21,065 bases of DNA from assembly GCA_008632985.1 (NCBI GenBank), contig QPGO01000265.1:62001-83065 (forward strand), given 5' to 3'. The notes below the pieces were generated by a model. The model saw nothing but the letters and a program-made list of their open reading frames with translations, made no database searches and had not been told where the DNA came from. How positions within the stretch are numbered: position 1 is the stretch's first letter; each line of letters begins with the position of its first letter. A program made the translations under genes and the position numbers. Below are positions 2,492 through 20,616 of the stretch, one piece after another. Source of the stretch: Psammoneis japonica (lineage: Eukaryota).

Positions 2492-2594
2492 GGAAAATGA
2501 AACGGCCCTGTGTATGCTGGCCTATATAAAACAACAACAGTCATTGCTAATGGCACAATACAGTGAACGTGGAGACATTATTGACACTGTCAAT

Positions 2595-2975
2595 TGCAAG
2601 ATCTAGCTTGAGATGACTTGATAAAAGTTGTGGGAGAACCGAGGAGAGACCCCATCATCGCTGATGCAGCCCAAACCTAACGGTTTCCCATGTGTCTAAT
2701 ACGTTAGTTAAGACGTGTTCCAGTCCCAGGTGACACACAAAACGACAATCGATTTTGAATATAAATTATGTATGTATTAGTGTATATAGTATTTTCATAT
2801 AAAATATTTAAGCGGATTGGCTTTTATAGGCATCTAGAGTATGAATAATTATGAAGAATTAAATAGTTTTTTGTTGGGCATCAAATTCCTCATGGGTTAT
2901 ATATCATAAACTTCCTCAGTAGACTCAATACTGAGGGCACACTCGGTCATAGAGTACATGTGCCTATCTCATTCA
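2595..2975 (-). repeat. 3' LTR of the Gypsy element (381 bp)
   Basis: 2595-2711 matches 8657-8773 and 2933-2975 matches 8789-8831; minus strand reads TGAATG...CTTGCA. Confidence 0.95.
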
Positions 2976-2987
2976 CTCTTCCCCTCC
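2976..2987 (-). other. Polypurine tract of the Gypsy element
   Basis: Minus strand GGAGGGGAAGAG abuts the TG of the 3' LTR. Confidence 0.9.
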
Positions 2988-3083
2988 ATGGTGCAAGGAA
3001 CACGCGCACCATTGGAACCACTCGACTAAAATTCAAAACCCACTGCGCACGGAGAAGGGAACCCAGACGTTGGGAAGAAACCC

Positions 3084-6000
3084 TCAACTCCGATACGGCA
3101 CCACACAGCGAACATTGATTCGCTCGATAACGTGCGGTGCTCGCAGTACCGAAACAGTCCCGTTGGCATGGACTTGTACAATTCGAGACGGACCATAAGC
3201 TCGTTCTTCCAACTTCGAAGGATCCACCGACTTGATTAACACATCTTGACCAACTAGATAATCGTAGGAATGTCGCTTCGCATTTTGTCGTCATAGGTTC
3301 TCGTCAATCAACACTTGTCGGTTGGCTTGTATCGTTGCGAGATCAGAAATAATAGGTAGGTCCAAAATCATATCACGTTGAAACACTAGAGCTCCACTTG
3401 AAACACCCGTAGACCTTGAGTGGGAGCATCGCAAAGCATAAGAGGCTGTAGCAAGGGCATCGTCCACAATCTGCTCGGCCTGTTGAACTTTTAAAGGTGG
3501 GTTAGCAACAACCACAGTGCGCAAGATATTAGCTACCGTCTGGTGCATTCGTTCACAAATAGAGTTGGCTGTAGGATTTCGAGACGTCGTCGGAGCATCC
3601 GCAATACCCGCTTGATTCAGTAACATTTGGAATTCCCAACCAATGAATTCTCCACCATTGTCATGGATGCATCGATTTGGTCTGGGATAACAAGCTAACC
3701 AAAGGTTGCGAAACTTGTTAGTCACATGTTGAGAAGTTTTGTTGTCAATGCGTACGAGTTCAGTCAATCCAGTAACAGCATCAATACAAGTGAGAGTGCT
3801 GAATTCAATCTCTTGATCTTGAATCGAGATCTTCCACGGTCCAATGAGATCAACTGCTACTTCCGTCCATGGAGCTAAAGGCGCTTGACGTTGAGGCAAC
3901 TCTCCATATCCAGGGCCTAGTTGCTTAAATCATTGACATGCATTGCAGACAAATTCATTACAACGTCGCCGCAATGCAGGATGATACATGTGAGTCCGAA
4001 TACTTTCATACAGTCGTACGACTCCACAATGGCCCAATACGCGATGATGCCATGCAATGATATCCGGCAACAATGCAGTGGGAATACAAATCTTCCAGGC
4101 TCCAGGCGGATCATTCAATTGCAAACGATAACAAATCAGGGGACGATGGTTCACAATCTTGACCACAAACTGCTGCGGATTTTGTTGTCTTTGCTGGTTC
4201 AGTTGGAGGTCTTCGAACTGGAACTGTTGGATCCTTAATGTCTCAGTGGGATTCGGCATCTCGTCCAGTGTTGGACAATTCAAAAAGCATTCAAACAATT
4301 CAGGCTCGTCGAGCAGAGAGGAAAAGGCGGCGTGAGACTCATCAGAAGGAGCAACCGGAGCACGGCAACACTTGAACCTGCAAGCGCCTAACTCCAAATC
4401 TTCCTCGGCCTGGGCCTTGGAATCCAACTTTTCAAAATGAATAATTTTTCCTTTGCGTTTACTACTTGGCCCAAGGCTCTTCCCTCCGAAGGTGGATCCA
4501 TACGTGGTAGACGAGAAAAACAATCGGCGAGCACGTTATCCTTGCCTTCGACATACTTAAACGTAGGCGCAAAATCTTCGAGGAACAGGCGCCAACGAAG
4601 GACGCGCTGTGCATTCAAAGTGCGAAAGGTGAGATTTTTGTGATCAGTATGAACAGTGATATCAGCACCGAGTGGCATCGAGCGAAATTCTTTGAAGCAC
4701 ATGACGACGGCCAGTAGTTCTTTTTCCATTGTCGAATAGTTTCATTGAGCCGTCGAAAGCTTTTTAGACCAACACGCCACCGGTTTACCATCTTGAATAA
4801 TAGCGGCGCCCATCTGGTAGTCTGATGCATCGGTGTAAACATGGAATGGTAGGTTATGGTTAGGGCAGGCCATCAATGCTTCCGCCGTGATTACTGCTTT
4901 CATTTCATCGAACGCTTTCTGACATGATTCCATCCATTGGAACTGACTTTTGCCTGTCAATTCAGTCAGAGGTGCAAGTAGGTGAGAACGGCGAGGCCAC
5001 ATATTGCAATAATAAGTTGCTGCACCGAGAAACGATCGGAGTTGAGTAGTGTCCCGTGGAGGTTGCATTCGTAGAATCGCTTCGACCTTTTTCTTCCACG
5101 GTCCAACACCAGTTGGAGTAAGCCAATGCCCTAAGAAATCGGTTTCTTGAACACACCACTCGCATTTCAACGGATTAACTTTCAAACCATTCTCTTCGAG
5201 ACGATGTAGCACCTTGTCAAGACGAGAGAGATGGCAATCAAAGTCAGTATCAAACGCTCCAATATCATCAATATAAGTTTCGACATCCAAACCATGAAGA
5301 ATCTTTTCAATAATGGACTGAGCAATGTCTGGAGCTGGCTTCAATCCCATAGCCATACGACAATGCTGAAACTTTCCGTAGGGAGTTGTAATCGTGGCGA
5401 GCTCTTTGCTTTCATCGTCTAATTCCAAATTGTAGTAGAACATAGTGAGATCCAATTTCATGAAGAATTTGTAGCCCGCTCTTCGTTGTAGCACATCTTG
5501 AATAACCGGTAAAGGATGCACTTTCCGCTTGAGGACCTTATTGAGCTCCCAAAAATCTGATACCCATCGTACTCGACCGTCGACGCGTTCCAGCCCTAGG
5601 TGGGAGCTCGTAGTACTGACGTGTGACAACAATAATTTTTATCATCCGTCGTATGTTTCGTACGTAGATTTCTACGTGTGATATTTAAAAAAAATTGTCC
5701 AGACTCGCTGTTTTGCGAAGCCCCAGACGTTTTATATAACAAATTTATAGAAACAATAATGCACCAGTTACATTCTTCAATGTCTGAAGAATGTAACTGG
5801 CTAAGTAAAAAATGATGTACTTCAATCATGTGCGAGTTTGTGCGTTCGCAAAATTGCCTCATTTTCTGTTGGCGATCATTGACACTTTAATTACCGTATA
5901 ATTTTACTACGGAGCTCGCACGTAGAAGTCTGCGGGCCCAATGTCACACGGATTCCCACCTACGTCTGGAACGCGTCCGTCCTTCTTCGGAGTAATAAAA

Positions 6001-7088
6001 GTACCAGCTGCCCATTCCGTAGGTCCACATGGTCGCAGCACACCGAGATTCACCAAGTGCTTCAATTCCTTTTTGAACGCTTCTTCATTAACTCGAGCAA
6101 CAGGAAACGGTTTTGAGTGATAAGGAATAGCGTTTTCATCCACTTCAAGGTGTACCTTTTCATGAGGATAGTGGCCCAACGTTCCGTCAAACAAGGTTGA
6201 ATACTTTTCCAACGCCGCTAGTAGTTTCTTCTTTTGTTCTTCCGTGAGATGGTCCAGATTCCGAACTACCTCCGCCGGATCCGTTGCTTCATACTTAGCA
6301 TCGAGCATGTGGGTGTCGTATCCGTCGTCGTATCCGTAGTCTGACTCGTCTTCATAATCTTCATCAAATTCATCCATTCGGTCTAAAGCAACATACCAAT
6401 TATAGGACTTGGACCAATGACGAGGCTCCTTCATTGGAATTACGCGGTCTAACCAACGTAGTGTTCTCGTATCATAGTTCAAATTGAGGCCAATCTTATC
6501 CAAGAAGTCTCGACCCAAAATGACATCATACGCACACGGAGCATCGAACACGTGAGCCACACAGCCGTCAATCCTCCTGGTCTTGTCGAATTCCGGTAAT
6601 ACAATATCGCTCAGGGCTACCCAACGACCCAACTGAAAAGGACCTGCAACGGTTTGAAAAGCTCGGACTCCATGTTCGTCAATAGATGGTACGGCTCCTC
6701 GAGGTAAAACTTGAGACGAGATCATAGTGTGAGAACCACCTGAGTCAAACAAGACACGCATCACACGATTCGACTCATGCCGCTGGATCAATTTCGTAAC
6801 AAGTAGTGTAGATGGGACCAACGCAGTACGCGAGACTTGCGATTTCATTTTGGGGAGAGGAATGTGATACTCAAATGCATCCTGATCGAACACGTCCCCC
6901 TCTTCATTCATGTAATTTTCTGCAGTATTTTCAAATTCAATGGGTGACAATTCGTCAGGATTTTCAAAACAATCAAAAACAAAATATTCATCATTTCTTT
7001 CAGGTAAAACACAATCATTTTCATCAACAAATACTTCTCTCATAGGCAATTGGGAGCATTCAGCTCCAGAGCATTCAGCTCCTTCTTC
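3084..7088 (-). pseudogene. pol: Gypsy pol: aspartic protease, reverse transcriptase, RNase H, integrase (disrupted)
   Basis: PR LFDSGGS...ILGRDFL; RT YIDD and NPLKCEW; RNase [28 protein letters not shown] zinc motif, VDLIGPW, HDNGGEF, NSICERMHQT. Broken by TGA stops at 4742, 3930 and 3291, a frameshift near 4480 and the MITE at 5582-5977. Natural stop at 3084-3086. Confidence 0.95.
5582..5977. mobile_element. 396-bp non-autonomous TIR element (MITE) inserted in the Gypsy RT
   Basis: 24-bp TIRs GACGCGTTCCAGcccTAGGTGGGA (5582-5605) and 5954-5977, 2 mismatches; 4-bp duplication CGTC at 5578-5581 and 5978-5981. Removing 400 bp restores [13 protein letters not shown] in frame. Confidence 0.93.
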
Positions 7089-8331
7089 TCAGAACTGCCG
7101 AGGAAACTGCCCATCTGGCTGAAACCTCACCACACCTCCATAACGTGGAGGGCCTCGTCCGATCATATCGAAATGGTGCACGTCACCACGAGGAGCTTCT
7201 CGAGCCTGGTTGTTGTTGTTCATATTGTCTGCTTGAGCAGCACATCCGTCGGCCTGACCTTGGCCTCCACGGTTGTTGTTTTCATTATAATGATGCTGAC
7301 CACCACCTTGGTTGCCATTGTTATTTTGGTGTCCATTGTTGTTATTGTTGTTATAACAGGTACCACGACCTCCTTGGTTCTGGTTACCACGACCACCAAA
7401 GCGTCCACCGCCTCCACGGCCTTGTCCACGGCCTCCTTGGAAACGACCTCCGCCTCGACCTCCACCGCCACGGCCTCCACCTCGACCGCCACGGTTTTGA
7501 GGCTCACGATAGTTAGGGTTGTTTGGATTATCATAACACTGGCCCCACGTATGCCTTCCATGGTGCCACGGGACTGGACACGGATCATTCGCCTTTGGTT
7601 GGCCCTTGCTATCCTTCTTGTCTCAGTTGCCCTTTTTGTTACTAGAGTTCCCTCCATTGCCATTATTGGACTTGCGCTTCTTGTTGTCCTGACCATCGGC
7701 GAATACCTTCTCATTGCTCATGTAGGCTTGGATGTCCACCATCGAGTCCGTAACAAGGTTCTTGCCCGCACGAATGTAAGACTGCTGCCAGGTCAAAGGG
7801 AAGGTGTAGAAGATAATATTTTTCTGCTCCTGCTCTGTAAGTTCAGGAACGGTTCCAGGCAAACGGTTAGTGCAACGAAACACCGTTTCCATATGATCAA
7901 CATGAGTTTCCGATTCCGCTGAATAAGGCTTTTTGCAAGTAGGCAAATACATCTTCATTGTGTCGCGAGCTGTTGGTTTCACGTAGCGCAAATAATAAGC
8001 CAAGATAGCCTGATTAAATCGAGCCACCGTCCGTTGATTCTGTTGGATACCCGTGGTAATATTCTGCCATTTCGCTTCCGCAGTACCTTGAAGGCAATCC
8101 TCGAAAGCATCAAATAATTCTGGTCCGGCATCATAGTCGAGCTGTCTTGCCACCTTCCGGAACCTATCCTCCACGTGCAATAATGATTCAATTCCATGCT
8201 CTCCTGTGAAAATAGGACACATTTTCGAAAGTTTAGTACCATCATCAAAGGTTTGAGTGAGCTTCACTTCCTGCAATTCTGAATTTGGTCTTATACTCAA
8301 TGCACGCTTTCTCCAAGGCTTCTTGATACAT
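7089..8331 (-). pseudogene. gag: Gypsy gag (disrupted)
   Basis: ORF 7623-8300 continues in frame past a TGA into a Cys/His knuckle (CPVPWHHGRHTWGQC) and an RGG/Asn-rich tail, up to TGA at 7089-7091. Probable ATG at 8331 with a frameshift near 8280. Confidence 0.8.
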
Positions 8332-8608
8332 GGCGATGAACAATTTCAGCGATCAAATAATCAACAATCCACAAGATGAACGAAACAAAGCGTTCCCAAT
8401 TGATCCACACAACGAGAACAATTAACAACCAAACAAGAATGAATTCAATAGTAGCAACACGAGCTTTGAGTTCAAACAAGCGCTGCTCTGAATCGCCAAT
8501 TTCACGAGTATAATTACGCGGCGATTCTGATCGACTTCGAATGAAATTTTCTGCATGCGCTCGTAAATAGACTTTCTCTCTTCTCAACAACACTCTTCGC
8601 GTTGTCAT
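8297..8608 (-). CDS. Small accessory ORF upstream of gag (103 aa; basic N-terminus, hydrophobic putative transmembrane segment)
   Basis: ATG at 8608, 48 nt inside the 5' LTR boundary; uninterrupted; IEFILVWLLIVLVVWINW hydrophobic run. Confidence 0.45.
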   Translation of the reverse strand: MTTRRVLLRREKVYLRAHAENFIRSRSESPRNYTREIGDSEQRLFELKARVATIEFILVWLLIVLVVWINWERFVSFILWIVDYLIAEIVHRHVSRSLGESVH

Positions 8609-8891: not shown

Positions 8892-9251
8892 TGCAGTATG
8901 CGACTGTTACACACATATTTATGATTATATATTATTTGTGTGTCAATCGTACCACAGTCGTGGATGCGTACAAAGGACAGAACGATCACACAGAGTTGAT
9001 CGGATGTCGAGAATACGATCGATTGACGATGTTGACATCTTACGTGTCAATAGCAATCGTATCCGGACAATCTGTTGTCACGAATATATTCTCCGAAAGG
9101 CCTTTTGTCTGTAGAAGCAGTACAGAAGCTTTAGGCCATTGAGAACTCGTTCGGAGAAACCAAAAATCACAGAGTAAAATTTAATCTCATAATTTTCACT
9201 TTTCGAACTTTGTTCTACTTTCGTTTACACTCGTTCTTTGAGCATAGTGCA
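8892..9251 (+). repeat. LTR of a second family, probably a 3' LTR (360 bp)
   Basis: TG...CA ends; aligns end to end with 18199-18565; preceded by purine-rich AGGGAGGCGAA (8881-8891); no flanking TSD. Confidence 0.85.
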
Positions 9252-9689: not shown

Positions 9690-12600
9690 GCCTTAAGCAG
9701 CATTTGAAGTTGCGCTACGCCTTGTTCCACGTCCAGAGATCAAAAAACCCCACCACCAAGGGATTGGGGTCCGTAGAGGATGAGGCGCTTCGTGTTCCTA
9801 TCACACCCACATTTGGTGAGTACAATCCTCATCGCCTTTTGTTGTACTGTACGTAACTCTTTTGGGAGAAATGTTGTTGAATTTGAGACGAGCACATGTG
9901 TCATTGAAGACAGGTAGCATGAGTGGTAAAACCTCCACGTTTCAGCATGATTTAGGGGGCAGGAGCGAAGAAAGAGGGCGGTGTTGTCACTCTTGGATTG
10001 GAGCTTCTTCAATTGGGTCTTCTGAGTGCCGATCGGTGCCATGTAGTGTCCAAGCGTTTTATGGGGAGTGTACGCGGAGAGTTGAGTGCTGGAATGGGAG
10101 GTTGTTCTATCTGCAGAAAAATTTTTGATGTTCAGGTCATCGTGGTAAGGGTGAATGAACGGTTCACAGTACTCCGTGAACTCCCACTCCACAGCATGGA
10201 AGGAGCACTTAGGCAGCTCAAGTTCATGTCCAGAGGCGTTAAGGAGATCGCACCAGAGTTGGTTATCCTGTTGGAGGGAAAAGGACAAATCATGTGCCGA
10301 AGGTTGTGGACTTGCGAGGAAGTCATTAACTTGTTTGGACGTATCGTCAACACAGCCGCGATTGTACACTCGGATGAAGAACCTGCCATCAGGTGTTTCG
10401 AAATATGCACCGATGGCTCTTGCATCGAAAATGTCAAAAAGGCGGCTGCATAAGGAGTTCCAACACCCGGGCGAATTGCCACTCCCTTGACCAGTGCCAT
10501 GCAGGGGGTGTGTGTCTGAGTGAGAACAGCTCCTCTGAGCCAATCCCAACAGTGTCCTGAGCCAATATCAAGCATGATGTAAAGTCACCATGTTGACTTC
10601 GACCGCTTGGGACTCCATTCCATCACTCCTTGAACATGAGCTGACGATTGCTGGAACATTCCTATCGAAGCAAGATGTGCAATCATCGTCACTCTTCAGC
10701 AACGTCTTTCGTGAGGCTCTTGACATTTCTAACATCAAATTCTCTAGGAAAACTGGGGTCTGTGCGGACAGGAAGGAACTACATCCGTAAATGCCTGGAT
10801 TGTACATTCAGTGGTTCTCCATGTGCTGGGCCAATTCACGCCACTTGACACTTGTAACAATCTGAAAATCTGCTTCACATGTGTGAATGACCCGCAGCCG
10901 ATGGATTTTGTTGTTTCCTGGCTCCTTGAATGTCATTACGTTGACAATGTCTTTCCAGCGGTCGTACAAATAGCCCCACTTCAGAGCACAGTTGATGAGA
11001 TGAAGGCGGATCGTGAACAAAGTTTGCTGGACTTGGTCTAGGTGCACTTTCTCTGGAGTCAGATTACCTTGGGCATCAAGGTCTTTTGCGCGAGCATGAT
11101 TGATGTACAATGCCTTCCAGTGGCCAAGATGCAAACCTGATTTCAGAGAAGTAGATGTGGATTCTGACCACTTCTTCAACTTTGATAAGAAAGCCTCAGA
11201 TGATAAATGATTCTTCACTGCTGGTGGTGTGCGTCGTCGGAGGTGCTGAACAAGCAACAAAGTTGCAAGATTCAAGTGACTAGCTTCGTACTCCCCATCT
11301 AAAATAAGCTCTGCCATGATCGCACTCCCTTCATGTCCCAAGTCAATCGACAGGGGAGGAACTGTCGGAGGTGTGCCATGGGCCAGACCAAAGTGACGTT
11401 GGTTACGTGTCTGTAGTGCTGACGCAACATCATCTGGAGCATCGACCGTCATCTAGTGTTCGCATGTCTTCGGATTCTCCTGTGGATTCTCTGGAACTTG
11501 TATGGTTTTGACACTGGAGTCCTCCTTCTTCTTGCATGCATTGATCTTGCAAAAGACTCGCTTTGTCTCCTCCACACAGTGCAAGTTCTGTAGGATTTTT
11601 CCTCGGCTTTGGACTTGTTGGTGCCTTCGAGTTCTAGTTCAGCAATTTTTGTATCTCATTCCGTGTCACGGTGTTTCTGGCTGTCGCGAGCAACTTGACG
11701 ACACTCAGACCGGGCTCGTCACAACACTGTGGAACATTCTTGAAGCGTTGTGGGGAGAAGAAAGGATGAAGAAAGTTGACACTTTGATCAGAGAATGGAA
11801 GGCACCACATCTTTCCGGTTCCTGAACATGGACATCACACACAACAACACAAAGACTTGCTTCCGGAGGTCCGCTAGCTTGATGGACCATTCAGGCAGGT
11901 CCCTTGCACCGTTTGCATTGTTTGGCTGCCGACAATGAGAACTGTAACATGTCACGGTCTAATCTCTTGGCAAGACTATGATTCCGTGCATCAGATTCAA
12001 AAAGGGCCTCCACTCGGGCAAGGACATTCCGACTTGTTATCAGAGGATCCATTGCTTCAAGATACGTAGTCACGTGTTTGGGTGATGATGCTTGGAGGTC
12101 TTGAAACTGAAATCTTGGTAAATCAATGGAAGGGCTTCTGAACAGGGCAACTGTGTCGAAGTCCACAAAATAAGCGTGATGATCAGATGACATTCGACAC
12201 CCAAACGATTCGTATCCACAGTGTCGTACAGCAGCTAAAGCCCCGGGGGTAGCTAGGACGTAATCCAGGTGTCGAGAACCTCGAACATAGGTTGAGAAGT
12301 CGAGATCTCTTCGTGTTGATGATACATGACGTCGGACATGTTGAATCGTTGTGCCATTGAAGCCAGGGTGTCGGAATCATGGCGAAAATTGGTGTTGAAA
12401 TCTCTGACAAGGATCACTTCATGGTTTGGGTCATCCAAAAAGCGTGCAAGGATGCATGTCAAATCAGTGCAAAAAGCTCTGCAAGGGTCGGGATTAGCTC
12501 TACCTTGTTGGTGGAGTAATGCCACTTGCTGAGCATATGTGCCGTTGTCTTGCCGGCAAGGGAGGAAGAATTGGTGTGCATGCTCTGTAGCACGACACAA

Positions 12601-13142
12601 ACATGACCTGATGGCCATGTTTCCCATCAAAAATCTGAACAGACCAGCGTCCCAATGGGTCTTCATGTTGAGCATGAAAGAGAATTACACGACATCAAGG
12701 CGGCGGTGCCGCCCGGTTTGTATGGAGTGGAGAAAGTAGTCTTCGATGACAAGCAGGAAAGTCTGCCATGATGTAGAGATCGTTTCACCGTGGATGTGCA
12801 ACTTTGATGGACGTGAAATTGCGTGGTGTCCAAACAAGTCTCTGAGATTCCGATGAGATCTGCCTGGATTTCGGTAGCTACCTGAGTGCAATCGTTGAAA
12901 TCACCTCCGGGTTGGTCAAATGAGCAACCATTGGCATTGAACGCGTACAATCGTGCATGGCCAGGTAATTTGGGGAGTAGTGGATCACCAACTGGGTCAT
13001 TCGAAGACAATTTGGTGTAGTCGATGGCAGTGGAGGGAGGGACATAATTTCTACCTGACAATGAGTGGGTCCACTGCTGAGCAGCAGAGTCAACTGCAGA
13101 CGAAGGGGCATCACCCCTCATGTTGAGGCTGTGCTTCCTCAA
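9690..13142 (-). pseudogene. LINE ORF2: AP-endonuclease and reverse transcriptase, many stops and frameshifts
   Basis: EN motifs FNANG, ADLIGISET, KPGGT, RDFN, SDH; RT motifs KEPGNNKIHRLRVI, DCTSCFDR, GTGQGSGNSP, CVDDT, LELPKC, KTLG, GPQSLGG. The frame continues as SLDVEQGVAQLQMLLK to about 9690. Confidence 0.9.
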
Positions 13143-13209
13143 AGGAAGGCTGAAGGAAGACTCTCGTCTGCGTCATGGAGTGGAGGCAGGGGGGACGACT
13201 GGACCTGCC

Positions 13210-14900
13210 TTACAAAAAATCCGAAGTATCGGCATCCATCATCGAAGTGTCCCCAGGAGGAGCATGAGCAGAGGCACCGGCTGGAGCAGACTTCACAGGC
13301 TTTTTCCGTTGCGGAGAAGATGGATCACTCGGAATTGCTGATGTGAATGTGTCTTGTGTCATTACCTGCAGCTGTGTAGCCAGAGCAGTTTGTAACTGGG
13401 CGGCAATGGTAGCTTGTAACTGAGTAGACAAGGTTTAGAGAGACTCTTGGTGCTTCTTTTCGAGTGCCACAAAGCGCTTTTCTTGGTCCAGTTGATTTTT
13501 TATAACGAGTTGTTGCAATTCTGCAATCTCAGTCGACTGGTTAGACATGTCAGAGATTGGAATGGCGCCAGGGGGATCACTGCTCCTGGGGTGTTCTGCA
13601 ACACTTGAGAACATGGTGGAAAGCTACCTTGAACGCCTGCACTCTTGGAAACCAGAGGACCTTCAGAGTCAGCTGACTGAGGAGGAGCTGCTGAAGCAGC
13701 TGGAGAAATGTTGGAAATGTCTAAGGAGGCCCAACTCTGGACACTAGCAGAAGAAATGGATTGGACTGCATCGGACATGTCGTCGCTAATTCCGGGAATC
13801 ATGGGTTTGATTTGGCTATCCGGGATTCCAGCTTCGAGTGTGATCTTATCGAACTGTTCTGGAAGATGTTCAGCAATATAATGTTTAGCCTGATGAAAGC
13901 AATCCTTGTCCACCAAAATGTTGTAACGCGGGACAGCTGTGAGTTTCTTGGAGGGGACAACATCTAATGCACCATGGACTTCCTTGATCGTGTCCGACAA
14001 ATAAAAGGAAATGGCTTCCGTGTAATGAAGCACTGGAATAACGTGAATCTTGGCACTCGTTTTGCATTGTTTGCGGACTGCTTTGTCAAAGGCTTCCGGT
14101 TGCGAGTAACGCCAGCGGGAAAGAACAATTGCCAATGGGTGTTCCTTCAAGACTTCCATCAGTGCATGAATCATGTCTTTTGCACGATCGTGAGGAGTTT
14201 CGATGGCGTAAAAAGTAGTGCGAAGGGATTGATCAAATGGGGAGGAGGCGGACTGAACAACAAGCCGGAAAGGTATTTTGGAACTGCTGCGTTGGGGAAG
14301 AAGAGCCATCAATAACTTCTGAGCTAAATCCGCGGGGCAGTGCTTTGGCAAGAGATCCACCAACAGGGCGACCCGGGAAAGATCCACAACAGTCTCATCC
14401 CAGTCGTGACGGCACACATAAATTCTGTTGTCTTTTAACACCTTGTTAATAAATGGGACACTCTGAACATCGGTGAGTGACAGAGACATGCGGATACGGT
14501 GGGCAATGACAAAGGTGGGAGACCGATGACGGGAGCCACCGATGCGATGCACAACAAAGTGTTGGGAGTGAGTAAGACCTGGAGTCCACTCAACGACATT
14601 GACATCAGGGATTTTGAGACCTCGATTAGACACAATCATCATCTTATTCATCAGTGGGTCTTGGGAAGCTTTCTGTTGGAGCGCATTGAGAATCGTTGTG
14701 TGGCCCATAGCCAACACCGTAGATGCGTTGTCGTCAGAAGAGGCAAGCTCAAAACGGATGGTCATCTCTTTAAGAGAAGAGCTCTCAGGTTTTCCGGAGC
14801 CAGTCCTGGTTGGAGTGGATGGAGTAGAGTCCTTATCAGGTGGAGGCTTTGGTTGAGGGTCGCCGGCAAGGCTGGCCTGCGGCGGAGGGGGGATCGTCAT
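13210..14900 (-). pseudogene. LINE ORF1 (frameshifted near 13530; C-terminal coiled coil)
   Basis: 473-aa ORF directly upstream of ORF2 on the same strand; heptad-like QLQATIAAQLQTALATQLQ in the downstream frame; ATG at 14900. Confidence 0.7.
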
Positions 14901-15081
14901 GGTGATGGGTTTTCGGTACAAAATTCACGTAGAATTCCACGTAGAAACTATTAACAGGTACTTACGCAGAAAAGTGCAGCAGAGCAACATGGAACATGGT
15001 GATAGAGATCCCTGTATCTACAGGCACCAGAGGGGGGGGTGATATTTTGAGACAGTGAAGTGTGCTTAGTTGAAGGGGGCG

Positions 15082-17662
15082 GTGCACTTCAAGTGCACTG
15101 GCATAATTTCCGGTGCACAGCGGTGCACTGATAAGTAAATTTTGACTTTCTTTCGTCCTTAAGTAGCTTTGTCAAAAGGGTCATTCGAAAACTCGAGTGG
15201 CGCACCATAAGAAAATCATCAAAAACTCGCATTTCTCGTTTGCGAGAGAGAAAACACACACTCGACGATGGCATCTTACGTTATTTTGAAGGGCGGCGGA
15301 TTCAACATAACGCAGCAAACCCGCTCTCTTGGTGAGTCGAGCTTGAATGAGACACTGAAGAAGTACAAGCTGGACACAACGTCACCAAAACTTGCAATTA
15401 CAGGAAAGAACAAAAAGACCGGCGAAGTGGGCACTGACACCGTTGCGACTAGTTCCATTGCACGGCATGAACCCATGTGGAGGCCATTTCATGACTTCTG
15501 TTACCTCATTGGTGACTCTGAAAGTGCCATGCTGCTGGCACGTGACTTGTGTCCATCAGATCCTTTTCCTTCGAATTTGGATACAGCAATCCAGTTTACT
15601 CAGTTCAGGACAAAACAAAAGGGCGAACCACTGCTTCACAACCGCACAAACGCTCCAGTAAAGGACCGGCATGGAAACCCCATCACCTGCATTGGTGATT
15701 GGAAAGGTCATTCTTCCATTGGGCTCTTCCGCACTGCCATGAGCAAGCTTCATAAGCACTACGAAACGACCAATGGCGAACACCGAGAAATGTGTGCTGA
15801 TTGTCGTGAGATTGGTGAGGAGGAAGCCCGAAAGGGCACTGGATGCCTCAAACACCCTGGTGATCCCCATTTCTGGCATCGTGGAAATACCACCAAACAT
15901 GAAGATTTCAAGGCTGCAATTGACCAATGGCAAGACTATGCATCGAACTACTACGAAGCTAGAAGTGCTTTTGCATTCTTGCCGGGCGAGGTGCGGGCTA
16001 TTCGAGACTACTGTTCGTCACATAATGACAAGTATCATCTAATGCTGTGGACTATCATTGTTGTTGGTACAAAGTCATTTCTACGCTGCGAAGAGGTTTA
16101 GGAGATGACGGTTGAAAAGTTTGTCACCGAGTACTTCCAAGTAACAGAAAATGCCGTCAAGGGTCTCTGCACCAAAATCCGTGGCAAGCATGACGACAAG
16201 GATCTTCATTTCATGGTTTGGGACGATGAAGAATGTCCTGAATTCTCAGGAACTATTGCTATTCTCATTTGGATGCATTGTTCTGGCATCAAGTCGGGCA
16301 AGTTGTTTTCCACTAGAGACGAGTTGGAGCTCAACAATGAACATCACGACGAAAATTATCCATATGACTCGCTCCTGGATTTTTTCAAGTTTGCTTGCGA
16401 AACCATTCTGGGAAGGGACATTGATAAGATGTCAACTGAAATCATTGGACCACACATTCTTCGAAGGACTGGCTTCGCGTTTGCCAAATGGGGCTCTACG
16501 CGTGACGGAGGGCGGCTGGGTGAGATGGCCGAAGCGAATATTTTGCTGAGCGCTCGTCACAAGCATGTGTCAAGCACCGCGACTTACCTTTCTGACAGTG
16601 GTACATTGAAGACTCTAGTTGACAGGGAAAAGGACAAGGATGCTCACCGTGTTGGTAAATGGGAGCCCATCCATGTGAAGCATCTTTTTTCATTTGCATC
16701 CGTCATGGTGGACTCTGCCAGGTACCGAAATCCTCTGCCAGAACTTGCTGATTGGTATGTCACGGAACTGCTTGGTGTGCAGCAGAGCAACTTATTGACC
16801 GTCAAGCAACTGTTCGCAAAAGCTACATCATACACGCCGAACTTGCCTGATGAAGAAGAAATGAAGCAGTTCTTGATTCATGAGCTTGGATCCAGCAAGG
16901 CAGAGGTGGTGATGCGAATGCACGATAAGTCGGCTGCAGAAAGAGTGCGTGCTGCACAGTCTACAACTTTTGAAGTACTCACCAACACCAACAGTACAAG
17001 GGAGAAGCAAGCTGCTACTGTCCCAGCTCAAGATGAAAGGAACACCAAAAAAACCAAGTCCACAGGTGACACCATCGTCCAGTTTGATCGTGACTGCCAA
17101 TCTGAATTTAAATCCACCAAGGATGCTGCTGCCAAGGTTCAGGTATTTGTGGATGCATGTCAGGACATGAAAGGTCAGGTGTGCGCCGGTAAGTTTTTGG
17201 AAGATCCTATCAAAAGCTTTGCATATCGAGCCGCTAGGGTCGTACAGTGCCTTGACGACTGCTACGAAAGCAAGGTTGATTGTTTTTTGCAAGAGAATTC
17301 TGGGCCCCTGTCAAAGTTCAGGACGTGCAACAAGGGTGTCAATCACAAGCCTACATTCGACATTGCAAAACTGTAAGAGGACGGAACGTACCAACACATA
17401 GAAATACATAGCGTTGTTCATCATTGTCAACAGCAGCATCGCGCCGTGCTTCACTCGTTCGCGTTTCGGCGAGCGACTCTAAATTCTGGTGAGCGTTAGC
17501 GCCTCCGTAGTTTTTCTACGACTAGAAGTACTCTCTAGTAGGTACGATCAATACCACGACTACCCACGACCTCGCGTGACGTGTACTTCGGTCTATACTG
17601 TGCTCTGCAGGCTCCAGTACTGATTCTACGTGAGTGCACGGTGCACAGCACAGATGTGCTGT
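15082..17662 (+). mobile_element. Crypton-like tyrosine-recombinase DNA transposon
   Basis: Lone YR gene with no RT; flanked by 11-bp direct repeat CGGTGCACAGC (15111-15121, 17639-17649) and GTGCAC-rich palindromes; exact ends uncertain. Confidence 0.7.
15268..17376 (+). pseudogene. Tyrosine recombinase (~700 codons) with one in-frame TAG at 16099-16101
   Basis: Catalytic pattern R (FLRCEE), K (RGKHD), HxxR (HILRRTG), H (SARH), Y (TATYL); ORFs 15268-16101 and 16105-17376 share a frame. Confidence 0.88.
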
Positions 17663-17692
17663 ATCTAAGTAGGAATGACACGATCCACTAAG

Positions 17693-20616
17693 ACAAACAC
17701 GACGTCAACGATTGGTCCATCAAGGTCCCCAACGGTCTGCAGCGCATCACCACCCTTGATGGTTACATCATCCCCATTGACATCAAAGGCGGCCTTCCAT
17801 ACATCGCCATGCGCCCACACACTGATGCCAAATGGGACACCTTGCCACACGTCGTCCTCACTGGTGATGACACTTGGGACCCATCTGTCCTCGACCACCA
17901 GTTCACCGACAATGAGACATGGTATGATGCCGTATCTGACCTCCAGGCTGACCCGACTACCAACCTCTTTGATGAGTTTGGCAACTATCGCCACCGTCAT
18001 GTCATCAACAACGCCATGCTTACGGACTCCGTCCTTGATGACCACCTGCTCCCAACGTCCGATTTCTTCTACGAATGCCATGAGCACGAGATCAATCCAA
18101 AGGATCCTGACTTTGAGTCTCTGCGCCCTTATTTTGGCTTTCTCCCGAAAAACACTGTCCGCCGCACTTTCGATTGCACGACGCAATGCGCTCGCATGTG
18201 CAGCATGCGACTGTTATATGCATATTCATAATTATATATTATTTATATGTCAATCGTACCACAGTCGTGGATACGTACAAAGGACAGAACGATCACACAG
18301 AGTTGATCGGATGTCAAAAATTGCAAATACGATCGATTGACGATGTTGACATCTTACGTGTCAATGGCAATCGTATCCGGACAATCTGTTGTCACGAATA
18401 TATTCTCCGAAAGGCCTTTTGTCTGTAGAAGCAGTGCAGAAGCTTTAGGCCATTGAGAACTCGTTCGGAGAAACCAAAAATCACAGAGCAAAATTTAATC
18501 TCATAATTTTCACTTTTCATACTTGATTCTACTTTTGTTTATACTCGTTCTTCGAGCATAGTGCACATGCCCGCCAGCACGCACTTGTAAAAGGCGTACA
18601 AAGTGCCCAACCCGGCCCTCAATGTCCACCACTGCAATGAACCCGTTGCCACCGACATGGTGTACTCTAACACCCCCGCCATTGACTCCGGATGCACCAG
18701 CGCCCAGCTTTTTGTTGGCACGGAATCCCTTGTCACGGACGTGTGTGGAACCAAGACCGACCAGGAATTTGTCAACACGCTTGAGGACAACATTTGTAAT
18801 CGTGGTGCCCCATCCAAGCTCATCAGCGACCGTGCTCAGGTTGAGATCAGCAAGAACAAAATCCTTGGCATCCTTTGTGCCCTCTTCATCTCTAGTTGGC
18901 AAAGCGAGCCTCAGCAACAGCATCAGAATTTTGCTGAACGTTGCCACCAAACTATGAAGACCATGGCCAACACCATCATGGATTGCTTCGGGTCTCCGGC
19001 TTACACCTGGCTACTCGCCCTGATGTACGTGTGCTTTGTGCTCAACCACACGGCATCTGCCAAGCTCCACTGGCGCACTCCCACCAAAGTGCTGTCCGGC
19101 TCTACTCCCGACATCAGCCCGCTCCTCCGTTTTCAATGGTGGAAACCTGTGTGCTGTCACCTGGATGATTCCGACTGGCCGTCCGAATCCCGTGAATTAC
19201 TTGGTCACTTTGTTGGCATTGCCGAACTCACGTGGGCCTCCAAATGATGTTCAAGATTCTTTCTGACGACACTCAAAAGATTCTCTACCGTTCCAACGTT
19301 CCGCCCGTGATCCGTCTGCCCCGAACCTGCATCTTGATCCTCCTGATGAGAGATCTGCTGAACCTGTCATTAAATCCTGCCATGACTCCGAAGATTTGCT
19401 GGATTCACCAGATGGGGAGGCGATCAGGATGCCCAAAATGCCGGTCTTTGACCCCAAGGATATCATCGGACGCACCTTCCTGATGAAGCCACAAGAGGAT
19501 GGACAACGCCACAGAGCTTGCATCGTCAAAGCCGTTGAGGACCACGACTGGAAAATCGGAGACAATCCTGAACTAGTTAAGTTCATTTGCTCCGTCAACA
19601 ATGACGAATACGAGGAAGTCCTAGCCTACAACGACATCATGCACCACATCGAGCAAGAAGACGAGGATGCTACCCTCTGGAAGTTCTGACGTATCGTGTC
19701 ACACGAAGGACCATTGCAACCCCATGATCCCTCTTGGAAAGGCTCAAGCTACAATGTCATGCTTGAATGGGAGAATGGGGAGGTCACATCCAAACCCCTT
19801 GCCATCATTGCCAAGGACGATCCCGTCACCTGTGCCATCTGTGCACGTGAGCACGGCCTCCTTGAAACCGAAGGATGGAGGCATTTTTGCAAGATAGCCC
19901 TGCGTCAGAAGAAGCTGTTCCGCATGGCCAACCAAGCCAAGTTACGCTCCTTTCGCACTGCACCATGATGCAAGTACGGACATGAAGTGCCACGGGACTA
20001 CAAGCACGCCTTGGCCCTCGATGAGCGCAATGGCAACTGCAAGTGGGGAGAGGCAACGGACCTCGAGATGACTCAGCTTGATGAGTACGAGGTCTTCCAT
20101 GACTGCGGACATTACAAAGATTCCAGCACCCCATTGGGACACAAGAAGATCCGGGTGCATCTTGTCTACGACGTCAAACATGACAGACAGCACAAAGCAA
20201 GGCTGGTTGCCGATGGACACCTTACGGATGTGCCCGTCAACAGTGTCTATTCCGGAGTAGTGTCTCTTCGCGGCCTGCGAATGATGATCTTCCTAGCCAA
20301 ACTCAACGAACTAGAGACTTGGGCCACCGACATTGGGAATGCCCATCTTGAAGCTACGACCAAGGAGAAACTGTACATCGCAGCAGGCCATGAATTTGGC
20401 AAGCTAGAAGGACACATCCTTGTCATCCACAAGGCCTTGTATGGACTCCGCAGCTCTGGCCTCAGATGGCATGAACACTTTGCCAATTGCCTGCGTGCTG
20501 AAGGATTCTTCCCGTGCAAAGCCGAACCCGACATCTGGCTGCGCAGGAATGGTGACCACTACGAATGTGTGGCAGTGTATGTGGATGACCTAGCCTTCGC
20601 CATGAAGGACCCCCAG
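17693..20616 (+). pseudogene. pol: Diatom-type (CoDi-like) Ty1/Copia polyprotein fragment: integrase then RT, 5'-truncated
   Basis: LPHVVLTGDDTWDPSVLD; IN EPVATD, LISDRAQVEIS, SEPQQQHQNFAER; RT HKARLVADGH, ATDIGNA, KALYGLRSSG, YVDDL. IN before RT is the Copia order. Confidence 0.93.
18199..18565 (+). repeat. Solo LTR (367 bp) inserted in the Copia ORF; same family as 8892-9251
   Basis: TG...CA ends; 4-bp TSD CATG at 18195-18198 and 18566-18569; removal restores TTQCARMPASTHL*KAYKVPNPALNV. Confidence 0.93.

Follow-up and report, generated by a model that had tools for sequence, protein, structure and literature searches.

Conserved tyrosines of a dead Copia-type retrotransposon fragment in Psammoneis japonica have given way to cysteine and histidine, and these replacements are probably the footprint of a mutational process that converts TpA to TpG or CpA after insertion of the element, likely by enzymatic deamination of the adenine of TpA. 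The fragment lies in a stretch of 21,065 nucleotides (the window; positions 62001-83065 of contig C265), and it was compared with its sister copies in the same genome, with relatives outside this genome and with host genes.

The Copia fragment and its surroundings

Both ends of the window copy are cut off, the 5' part of the element is lacking, and the copy is collinear with full-length relatives. Its parts and its three in-frame stops are the following.

17692-20616, + strand: Copia-type pol fragment overall, a dead retrotransposon piece split by an insertion
17692..18198, + strand: 5' pol piece (region before the integrase core), 88% match to locus L045 4094-4599
18199..18565, no strand assigned: solo-LTR-like TG...CA insertion of 367 bp, CATG duplicated on both sides
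18566..20616, + strand: integrase region, linker and RVT_2 reverse transcriptase; TA O/E 0.37, CG O/E 0.71
18588, + strand: in-frame TAA, unrelated to the TpA process and to CpG decay
19687..19689, + strand: in-frame TGA, CpG-decay site
19966-19968, + strand: in-frame TGA, CpG-decay site

The reverse transcriptase was identified as RVT_2 (PF07727, E 2.7e-21, Pfam), the Copia reading changes frame near 19230-19330, and it ends just past the YVDD motif. Pfam names no integrase in either the window piece or its intact relatives, and the region before the linker is one that we take to be integrase from its motifs. The 367-bp insertion (TA O/E 0.76) is younger than the surrounding Copia fragment, and its joint (18194>18566) is also present in contigs of the public sequencing run X1. 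Among public runs, one DNA run matched, as contigs, and none was listed for RNA; a contig from the public run equals window 18538-18825 without any difference, possibly comes from the same sample and is not independent. The small TG...CA element occurs in four copies (window 18199-18565 and 8892-9251; L045 2496-2897 and 9635-10000) that differ in their stage of TA loss, and conversion is nearly complete in the AT-rich first 60 bases of the second L045 copy.

Other elements share the window. A broken multi-copy frame at 15211-17376 on the + strand (TA O/E 0.41, no Pfam hit) resembles NDC10-II/tyrosine-recombinase (Crypton-like) proteins by ESM Atlas features (0.94). A broken gypsy element on the - strand (3291-8345; protease, RVT_1, RNase H, rve; TA O/E 0.6) carries His or Cys at several places where Tyr is presumably the family residue, and a fragmented element at 9740-14924, also on the - strand (TA O/E 0.37-0.44, CG 0.65-0.70, no Pfam hit), is taken by us to be LINE-like from its motifs.

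The Copia family is large: scoring of 40 among 410 DNA candidates gave 41 matches, and on the protein side 150 among 947 candidates were scored. The host is a diatom, as its genome contains silicon transporter genes (best E 2e-208), and one outside relative of the family comes from Cylindrotheca fusiformis.

Tyrosine sites of the window copy

The initial annotation had listed ten eroded peptide motifs, and all ten are present in the + strand translation of 17692-20616. The 12 sites that it read as former tyrosines bear TGC or TGT at seven (18187, 18744, 19152, 19155, 19840, 19969, 20566) and CAC or CAT at five (17818, 18945, 19981, 20140, 20344); TGY and CAY replacements both occur, as claimed.

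17818..17820, + strand: RPHTD, CAC (His); outside relatives Tyr 40/58; sisters CAC 5, TGC 1, TAC 1
18187..18189, + strand: TTQCAR, TGC (Cys); outside relatives Tyr 38/58; sisters TGY 15, CAY 3
18744..18746, + strand: TDVCG, TGT (Cys); outside relatives Tyr 53/66; sisters TGT, CAT, TAT
18942..18947, + strand: ERCHQT, TGC CAC; Cys at an Arg site (CpG decay), then His at a Tyr site
19152..19157, + strand: PVCC, TGC TGT (Cys Cys); outside relatives Tyr 57/66 and 61/66; sisters TG, CA, TA
19840..19842, + strand: CAICA, TGT (Cys); outside relatives Tyr 66/66; TAY kept in 18 sisters
19969..19983, + strand: CKYGH, TGC at 19969 and CAT at 19981; both Tyr sites, middle Tyr intact
20140..20142, + strand: GHKKI, CAC (His); family-inherited His, not erosion of the window copy
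20344..20346, + strand: IGNAHLEA, CAT (His); outside relatives Tyr 66/66; sisters TGY 18, CAY 5, TAY 5
20566..20568, + strand: YECVAVYVDD, TGT (Cys); outside relatives Tyr 57/66; sisters TGY 15, CAY 8, TAC 5

Tyrosine as the ancestral residue was borne out at 11 of the 12 sites by sister copies and outside relatives. In an alignment of up to 66 outside relatives of at least 1000 aa (66 of 120 proteins kept; six of low identity and those under 1000 aa dropped), Tyr outnumbers every other residue at 11 sites, the exception being 19981, where these relatives have Phe in 48 cases and Tyr in 16. Own-genome sisters show a mixture of TGY and CAY at 11 sites and retain TAY at 10 of these; codon counts at 19981 are CAT 14, TGT 10 and TAT 2, and no TAY is left in any sister at 18187. 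The exception is GHKKI, where the proposed eroded GYKKI has to be given up: all but one of 29 sisters carry CAC, and the five younger-family copies checked all carry His. At ERCHQT, outside relatives have Arg in 61/66 and Tyr in 48/66, and sisters have CGC (15) as the first codon and TGC (16), CAC (5) or TAC (1) as the second. In YECVAVYVDD the neighbouring tyrosines at 20560 and 20578 are intact. The proposed direction, TA to TG/CA, holds, as intact relatives retain Tyr rather than Cys or His at the eroded positions.

Cys or His occupies 8 of the 22 conserved tyrosine positions of the window (Tyr in at least 70% of outside relatives), compared with 34/3200 in outside proteins (binomial p 5e-11). 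TA occurs 42 times in 18566-20616 against 113 +/- 8 in shuffles, a difference to be read with the host coding DNA being already TA-poor (O/E 0.47). Counted in strictly defined columns, 8 of 25 TA and 38 of 97 CG are gone from the window copy, which is the fourth least eroded among 30 copies, i.e., a mild example of TA erosion.

Mutation spectrum in own-genome copies

Copies were picked by similarity (best 40 of 410 candidates) or by a long open frame (20 of 150 listed). Nineteen of the 20 long-frame copies are members of a younger family that shares 78% identity with the window and has frames of up to 1900+ codons, TA O/E 0.09-0.42 and CG O/E 0.86-1.0. Across 50 own-genome loci (49 places, as L006 and L045 overlap) Cys or His was found at 860 of 1462 conserved tyrosines (Cys 599, His 261), compared with outside backgrounds of 34/3200 and 38/2215; a control for T>C off TA, Phe to Leu or Ser, gave 18/1261 in the own-genome loci.

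The young-family alignment comprises 17 copies (L045, L047 and L049 left out), with L043 and L044, two real copies with little erosion, as the reference against which changes in the 15 others were polarised. A>G changes affected 526 of 2066 adenines at TpA (0.255 per site) versus 266 of 29724 other adenines (0.009), with ApA (59/7288) equal to background. C>T at CpG amounted to 238/9783, C>T at CpA (68/11524) was at background level, and transversions numbered 134/71971. When 70 TA sites were followed through the 15 copies, TG or CA was frequent and CG was encountered 0 times: a single hit at TpA destroys the target on both strands, hence the product is almost never CG. About 100 alignment columns contain TA, TG and CA side by side.

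The two LTRs of one insertion are identical at the time of insertion. In 18 LTR pairs (93-98% alike, with visible 5-bp target duplications; L044 and L045 not included) 224 mismatches were counted, 117 of which oppose TA to TG or CA (TA/TG 54, TA/CA 63), the remainder being 28 TG-vs-CA doublets (56 mismatches), 30 of CG type and 21 others. Since the LTRs start identical and yet differ at TA, it was the integrated, chromosomal DNA that changed, and it did so on both strands.

The base that follows TpA matters. A competing-hazard fit gave 1 for TAA, 1.6 for TAC, 0.8 for TAG and 2.1 for TAT, so that TAC and TAT are lost about twofold faster than TAA and TAG. A sense-strand bias considered as a separate feature (sense/antisense ratio 1.38 overall) was set aside as largely a product of this 3' base preference, as the ratio is 1.91 at Tyr sites and falls to 1.12 at non-Tyr sites; at symmetric GTAC sites a mild strand bias remains (12 vs 4 sites). 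That Cys outnumbers His is thus largely explained by the preference for TAC and TAT together with little strand bias outside Tyr codons. There were no same-strand runs in own-genome copies (0.522 vs 0.532 +/- 0.011 shuffled).

Young copies have lost 19-81% of TA versus 2-13% of CG, and TA loss ranges from 16% to 100% among copies with similar background divergence. The most eroded sister has one TA in 1492 bases, and O/E goes down to 0.01. No significant relation was found between the erosion of a copy and that of its flanks (rho 0.24).

Why tyrosine is the main victim

Tyrosine is hit most because it is the only residue without TA-free codons and because the family has few synonymous TA. The 1146 TA losses of the 17 young copies comprise Tyr>Cys 414, Tyr>His 162, silent 278, Thr>Ala 79, Val>Ala 35, Asn>Asp 33, Ile>Met 27, Ile>Val 25, Leu>Pro 24 and Ile>Thr 18. 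The initial annotation had stated that TA to TG/CA changes create no stops, and 0 of the 1146 did so, in copies that were chosen for long open frames and under a genetic code that predicts zero stops too. It had also predicted exchanges of Ile to Met or Thr, Val to Ala and Leu to Pro or Ser; these are present, as predicted, but make up just 106 of the 1146 events versus 576 for Tyr to Cys or His. They are few because ATA, GTA, CTA and TTA codons are scarce in the family. Columns with TA or a TG/CA mixture in any copy number 72 at Tyr codons, 34 at xTA codons and 68 spanning two codons. The xTA sites account for about 9% of the codons for Ile, Val and Leu, with an outside median of about 20% (76 relatives) and a host value of 15% (13 frames), the denominators differing slightly among the three. 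It seems that the family shed synonymous TA while selection retained Tyr. The Tyr content is about 4% in outside relatives versus 0.4-2.9% in own-genome copies.

CpG decay as a second process

Conserved arginines of the window copy are changed at 11 of 36 positions, to Cys, His or Gln. These Arg losses and the TGA stops are due to CpG decay, which harmed the window copy as much as TpA erosion did. The CG to TG/CA changes are a slower 5-methylcytosine decay, a separate process in the same DNA. Copies that lost more TA also tend to have lost more CG (rho 0.46 and 0.52), which points to a shared cause, at least in age or chromatin. A local coupling of the two was considered and rejected: the crude OR of about 1.3 was only 1.04 once stratified by copy (Mantel-Haenszel). 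TA loss was not raised within 30 bp of a mutated CG and did not track CG density (rho 0.05).

Targeting within the genome

Host genes have TA O/E of about 0.47 and normal Tyr content. Silicon transporter duplicates that are 89-99.9% identical over 1.7-3.3 kb are untouched, frameshifted ones included (TA O/E 0.37-0.55; aligned Tyr all kept or all but one), some of which may be alleles, while two pairs sit on one contig each. Old transporter fragments within TA-erased blocks have O/E 0.0-0.08 and show Tyr>Cys. Near-identical duplicates being intact, duplication by itself is no trigger; TA erasure switches on and off between neighbouring kilobases, and the trigger is likely a silenced domain.

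Several further observations concern the same genome. The silicon transporter family is large (L164-L176) and includes a 1511-aa frame on C38 that contains three tandem repeats, and its recent duplicates are uneroded and its old fragments on C53 erased. In C5 DNA-methylase-like copies (L065, L066, L067 and L071, on C301 and C297) Tyr is nearly absent and TA O/E is 0.07-0.11, compared with 0.54 in a distant paralogue on C34 that is intact. Along C265 22001-83065, TA O/E is 0.03-0.27 at 22-39 kb and then mostly 0.3-1.0, and the window occupies a partly spared zone at the contig end.

The same signature outside this genome

In the set of outside proteins (5 of 306 dropped, with under 10 conserved Tyr covered), 3 of 301 have at least three Cys or His at conserved Tyr, intact Arg and almost no reverse changes, which is no prevalence figure since two of the three came from a search with an eroded query. 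They are P0182 (9/21, p 1e-14), P0108 (11/35, p 1e-15) and P0236 (5/15, p 6e-8), which share 60-71% identity among themselves and no more than 67% with own-genome copies. Compared with its closest relative, P0236 has 8 Tyr>His and 0 Tyr>Cys, a pattern compatible with one strand having gone through a single round. Viral contigs were searched for relatives of P0108, and none were found.

A marine metagenome contig (L134) contains an intact Copia frame (235-2577) with 68% DNA identity to own-genome copies. Although Tyr makes up 3.7% of its residues, TA is almost restricted to Tyr codons (29 of 34 TA steps), and three codons are xTA. T was used before A at 2 of 154 chances versus 68 of 192 before C or T (p 5e-18). 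Among 76 relatives, from which 4 of 80 metagenome loci had been left out for frames shorter than 400 aa, the T-before-A rate second to that of L134 is ten times higher. In its 3' non-coding DNA (2577-3500) TA and CG O/E are both near 0.2. We infer from these sequences that the process is not private to the Psammoneis japonica genome; P0108, P0182, P0236 and L134 may stem from close relatives of P. japonica.

Proposed mechanism and its rivals

In the mechanism that we favour, a TadA/ADAT2-type deaminase with a 5'-U/T preference would be recruited to silenced chromatin. The deaminated adenine of TpA would become deoxyinosine, replication would fix A>G on that strand, and repeated rounds would mix TG and CA along one copy. 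This would constitute a genome defence in which elements are killed by missense changes and stops are not needed. As far as the sequences go, the damaged base may be the A of TpA or the T of the other strand, since both fit.

The genome contains an ADAT2 orthologue (L056) that looks like an ordinary tRNA enzyme; the Asn in its GCxNxRFGG motif is common to the three top ADAT2 chains of a structure search and is not discriminating. Profile searches with PF00383 and PF14437 returned ordinary-looking deaminases, which we take by their motifs to be dCMP deaminase-, TadA-, ADAT2-, RibD- and guanine-deaminase-like. A search with PF02137 returned two A_deamin-domain genes (L072-L075; C40, C79) with no extra domain visible in the stretches read. 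ADAT-catalysed editing was reported to prefer U at -1, in agreement with the strict 5' T of the present process, and fungal ADAT mRNA editing to prefer A/G at +1 (PMC11156358); the preference for C/T at +1 found here counts against an ADAT-type enzyme, and the absence of strand-coordinated runs counts against a processive deaminase, which might leave such runs. A search for methylpurine DNA glycosylase (PF02245) gave no match in the genome, with controls positive in 4 of 14; its loss, if real, would let deoxyinosine persist.

A modified base at TpA in silenced DNA (N6-methyladenine, 5-hydroxymethyl- or 5-formyluracil) that mispairs or deaminates would make the mutations an epigenetic by-product. 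We consider this unlikely, while a base of this kind would account both for the strict dinucleotide and for the confinement to silent domains, in the way that 5mC does for CpG decay, and the base preference reads equally as R-T-A around the T. TA loss in young copies is, however, about ten times faster per base than that of methyl-CpG, which is fast for passive decay, and neither MT-A70 nor TET/JBP had a match in the genome, an argument that weighs little as bacterial controls were equally silent. That TA and CG losses share the same DNA and correlate across copies would also be expected if T:G mismatches from deaminated 5mC recruited an eta-like translesion polymerase that miscopied nearby A:T, and diatom CoDi elements were reported to be CG-methylated by DNMT5 (PMC9998398). 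Such error-prone repair appears improbable, given that A>G at ApA is only at background and that mutated CG have no local excess around them and CG density no link with TA loss, even though mismatches restored to CG would leave no trace. The polymerase eta WA signature includes ApA.

Editing of RNA or cDNA before integration (ADAR- or APOBEC-like), fixed by reverse transcription, would draw on the two A_deamin-domain genes and would agree with the one-strand pattern of P0236. TA sites, however, distinguish the two LTRs of an insertion, hence the change is post-integration; moreover, host-gene duplicates without a retro step are erased too (L065-L071, transporter fragments), and non-Tyr sites show about as many hits on one strand as on the other. 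This makes editing before integration very improbable as the cause: it is largely refuted by the own-genome LTR pairs and could account for a minor share. Finally, there is hardly any chance that the direction is reversed (RIP-like CA/TG to TA), that Cys and His are the normal residues or that the assembly is at fault. At one of the 12 sites the family does have His, but outside relatives carry Tyr, a RIP-like direction cannot produce the roughly 100 mixed TA/TG/CA columns, and an artefact is contradicted by the alternation of the effect between neighbouring kilobases, by the sparing of genes and by the identical contig of the public run, with the reservation about its sample made above.

Relation to known systems and significance

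Deamination of TpA in silenced DNA, the reading preferred here, has a close parallel in Bigelowiella natans, in which TpA-only A>G/T>C changes in integrated NCLDV and virophage DNA were measured de novo, as an intermittent hypermutation with the de novo rate raised about 1000-fold; the authors (Mettrop et al.) propose ADAT2, which is unproven, and report that low-TpA genes are enriched for transposase and reverse-transcriptase domains (bioRxiv 10.64898/2026.01.13.699255). As far as that preprint goes, both processes are confined to TpA, affect both strands, act in the chromosome on foreign or silent sequence, spare genes and are uneven in activity. B. natans is a rhizarian alga in which two single-copy viral regions are affected and TpA is still common there, whereas the present process runs in a diatom, hits transposons in general, reaches near-complete erasure in many copies, is accompanied by CpG decay and prefers TAY. 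The words "diatom" and "tyrosine" are absent from the main text of the preprint, and our literature search for a TpA process in diatoms found none in a body of work from which most subscription papers were beyond reach. What is new here is the diatom host, the transposon targets and the near-complete erasure of a process otherwise known from one preprint; the most useful additions are the cases outside this genome and the purge of synonymous TA.

RIP of ascomycetes likewise disables chromosomal repeats by dinucleotide-specific transitions, and its chemistry is opposite: it makes TA from CA/TG and creates stops. Unlike in RIP, near-identical duplicated genes are untouched here and no strand-coordinated runs were seen, and the RIP hallmark, C>T at CpA/TpG, was no higher than background in young copies, as the CpA count given above shows. 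Diatoms carry a RID-related DNMT4, of which the function is given as unknown (PMC9998398). TadA and ADAT2-ADAT3 systems, including the fungal Tad2-Tad3-Ame1, in which a cofactor redirects a tRNA enzyme to a new substrate, resemble the present process in having U/T directly 5' of the edited A (PMC11156358); they differ in acting on RNA and in their +1 preference, and DNA activity of a diatom ADAT2 is putative. The elements resemble the CoDi Ty1/copia elements of diatoms (Maumus et al. 2009, PMC2806351) in RVT_2 and host, and the 78%-identical sister family shares with CoDi the TG...CA LTRs with 5-bp target duplications (PMC2806351).

For annotation, eroded elements look intact, with open frames of 1900+ aa and 0.4-1.5% Tyr, and LTR-based ages are inflated in genomes with a TpA process. 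A natural DNA adenine deaminase, if real, would be relevant to base-editor work. A repeat-directed A>G mutator, if true, would be a second RIP-like eukaryotic genome defence, of opposite chemistry. Given the outside cases, existing assemblies can be used to test how the process is distributed. It is quite possible, and we propose it tentatively, that several microalgal lineages run a chromatin-guided DNA adenine deaminase against their transposons and that elements exposed to it are pushed to shed all TA they can do without, as L134 would exemplify, and keep Tyr codons as an inescapable target; if so, transposon codon usage alone could map the host range of the deaminase system.
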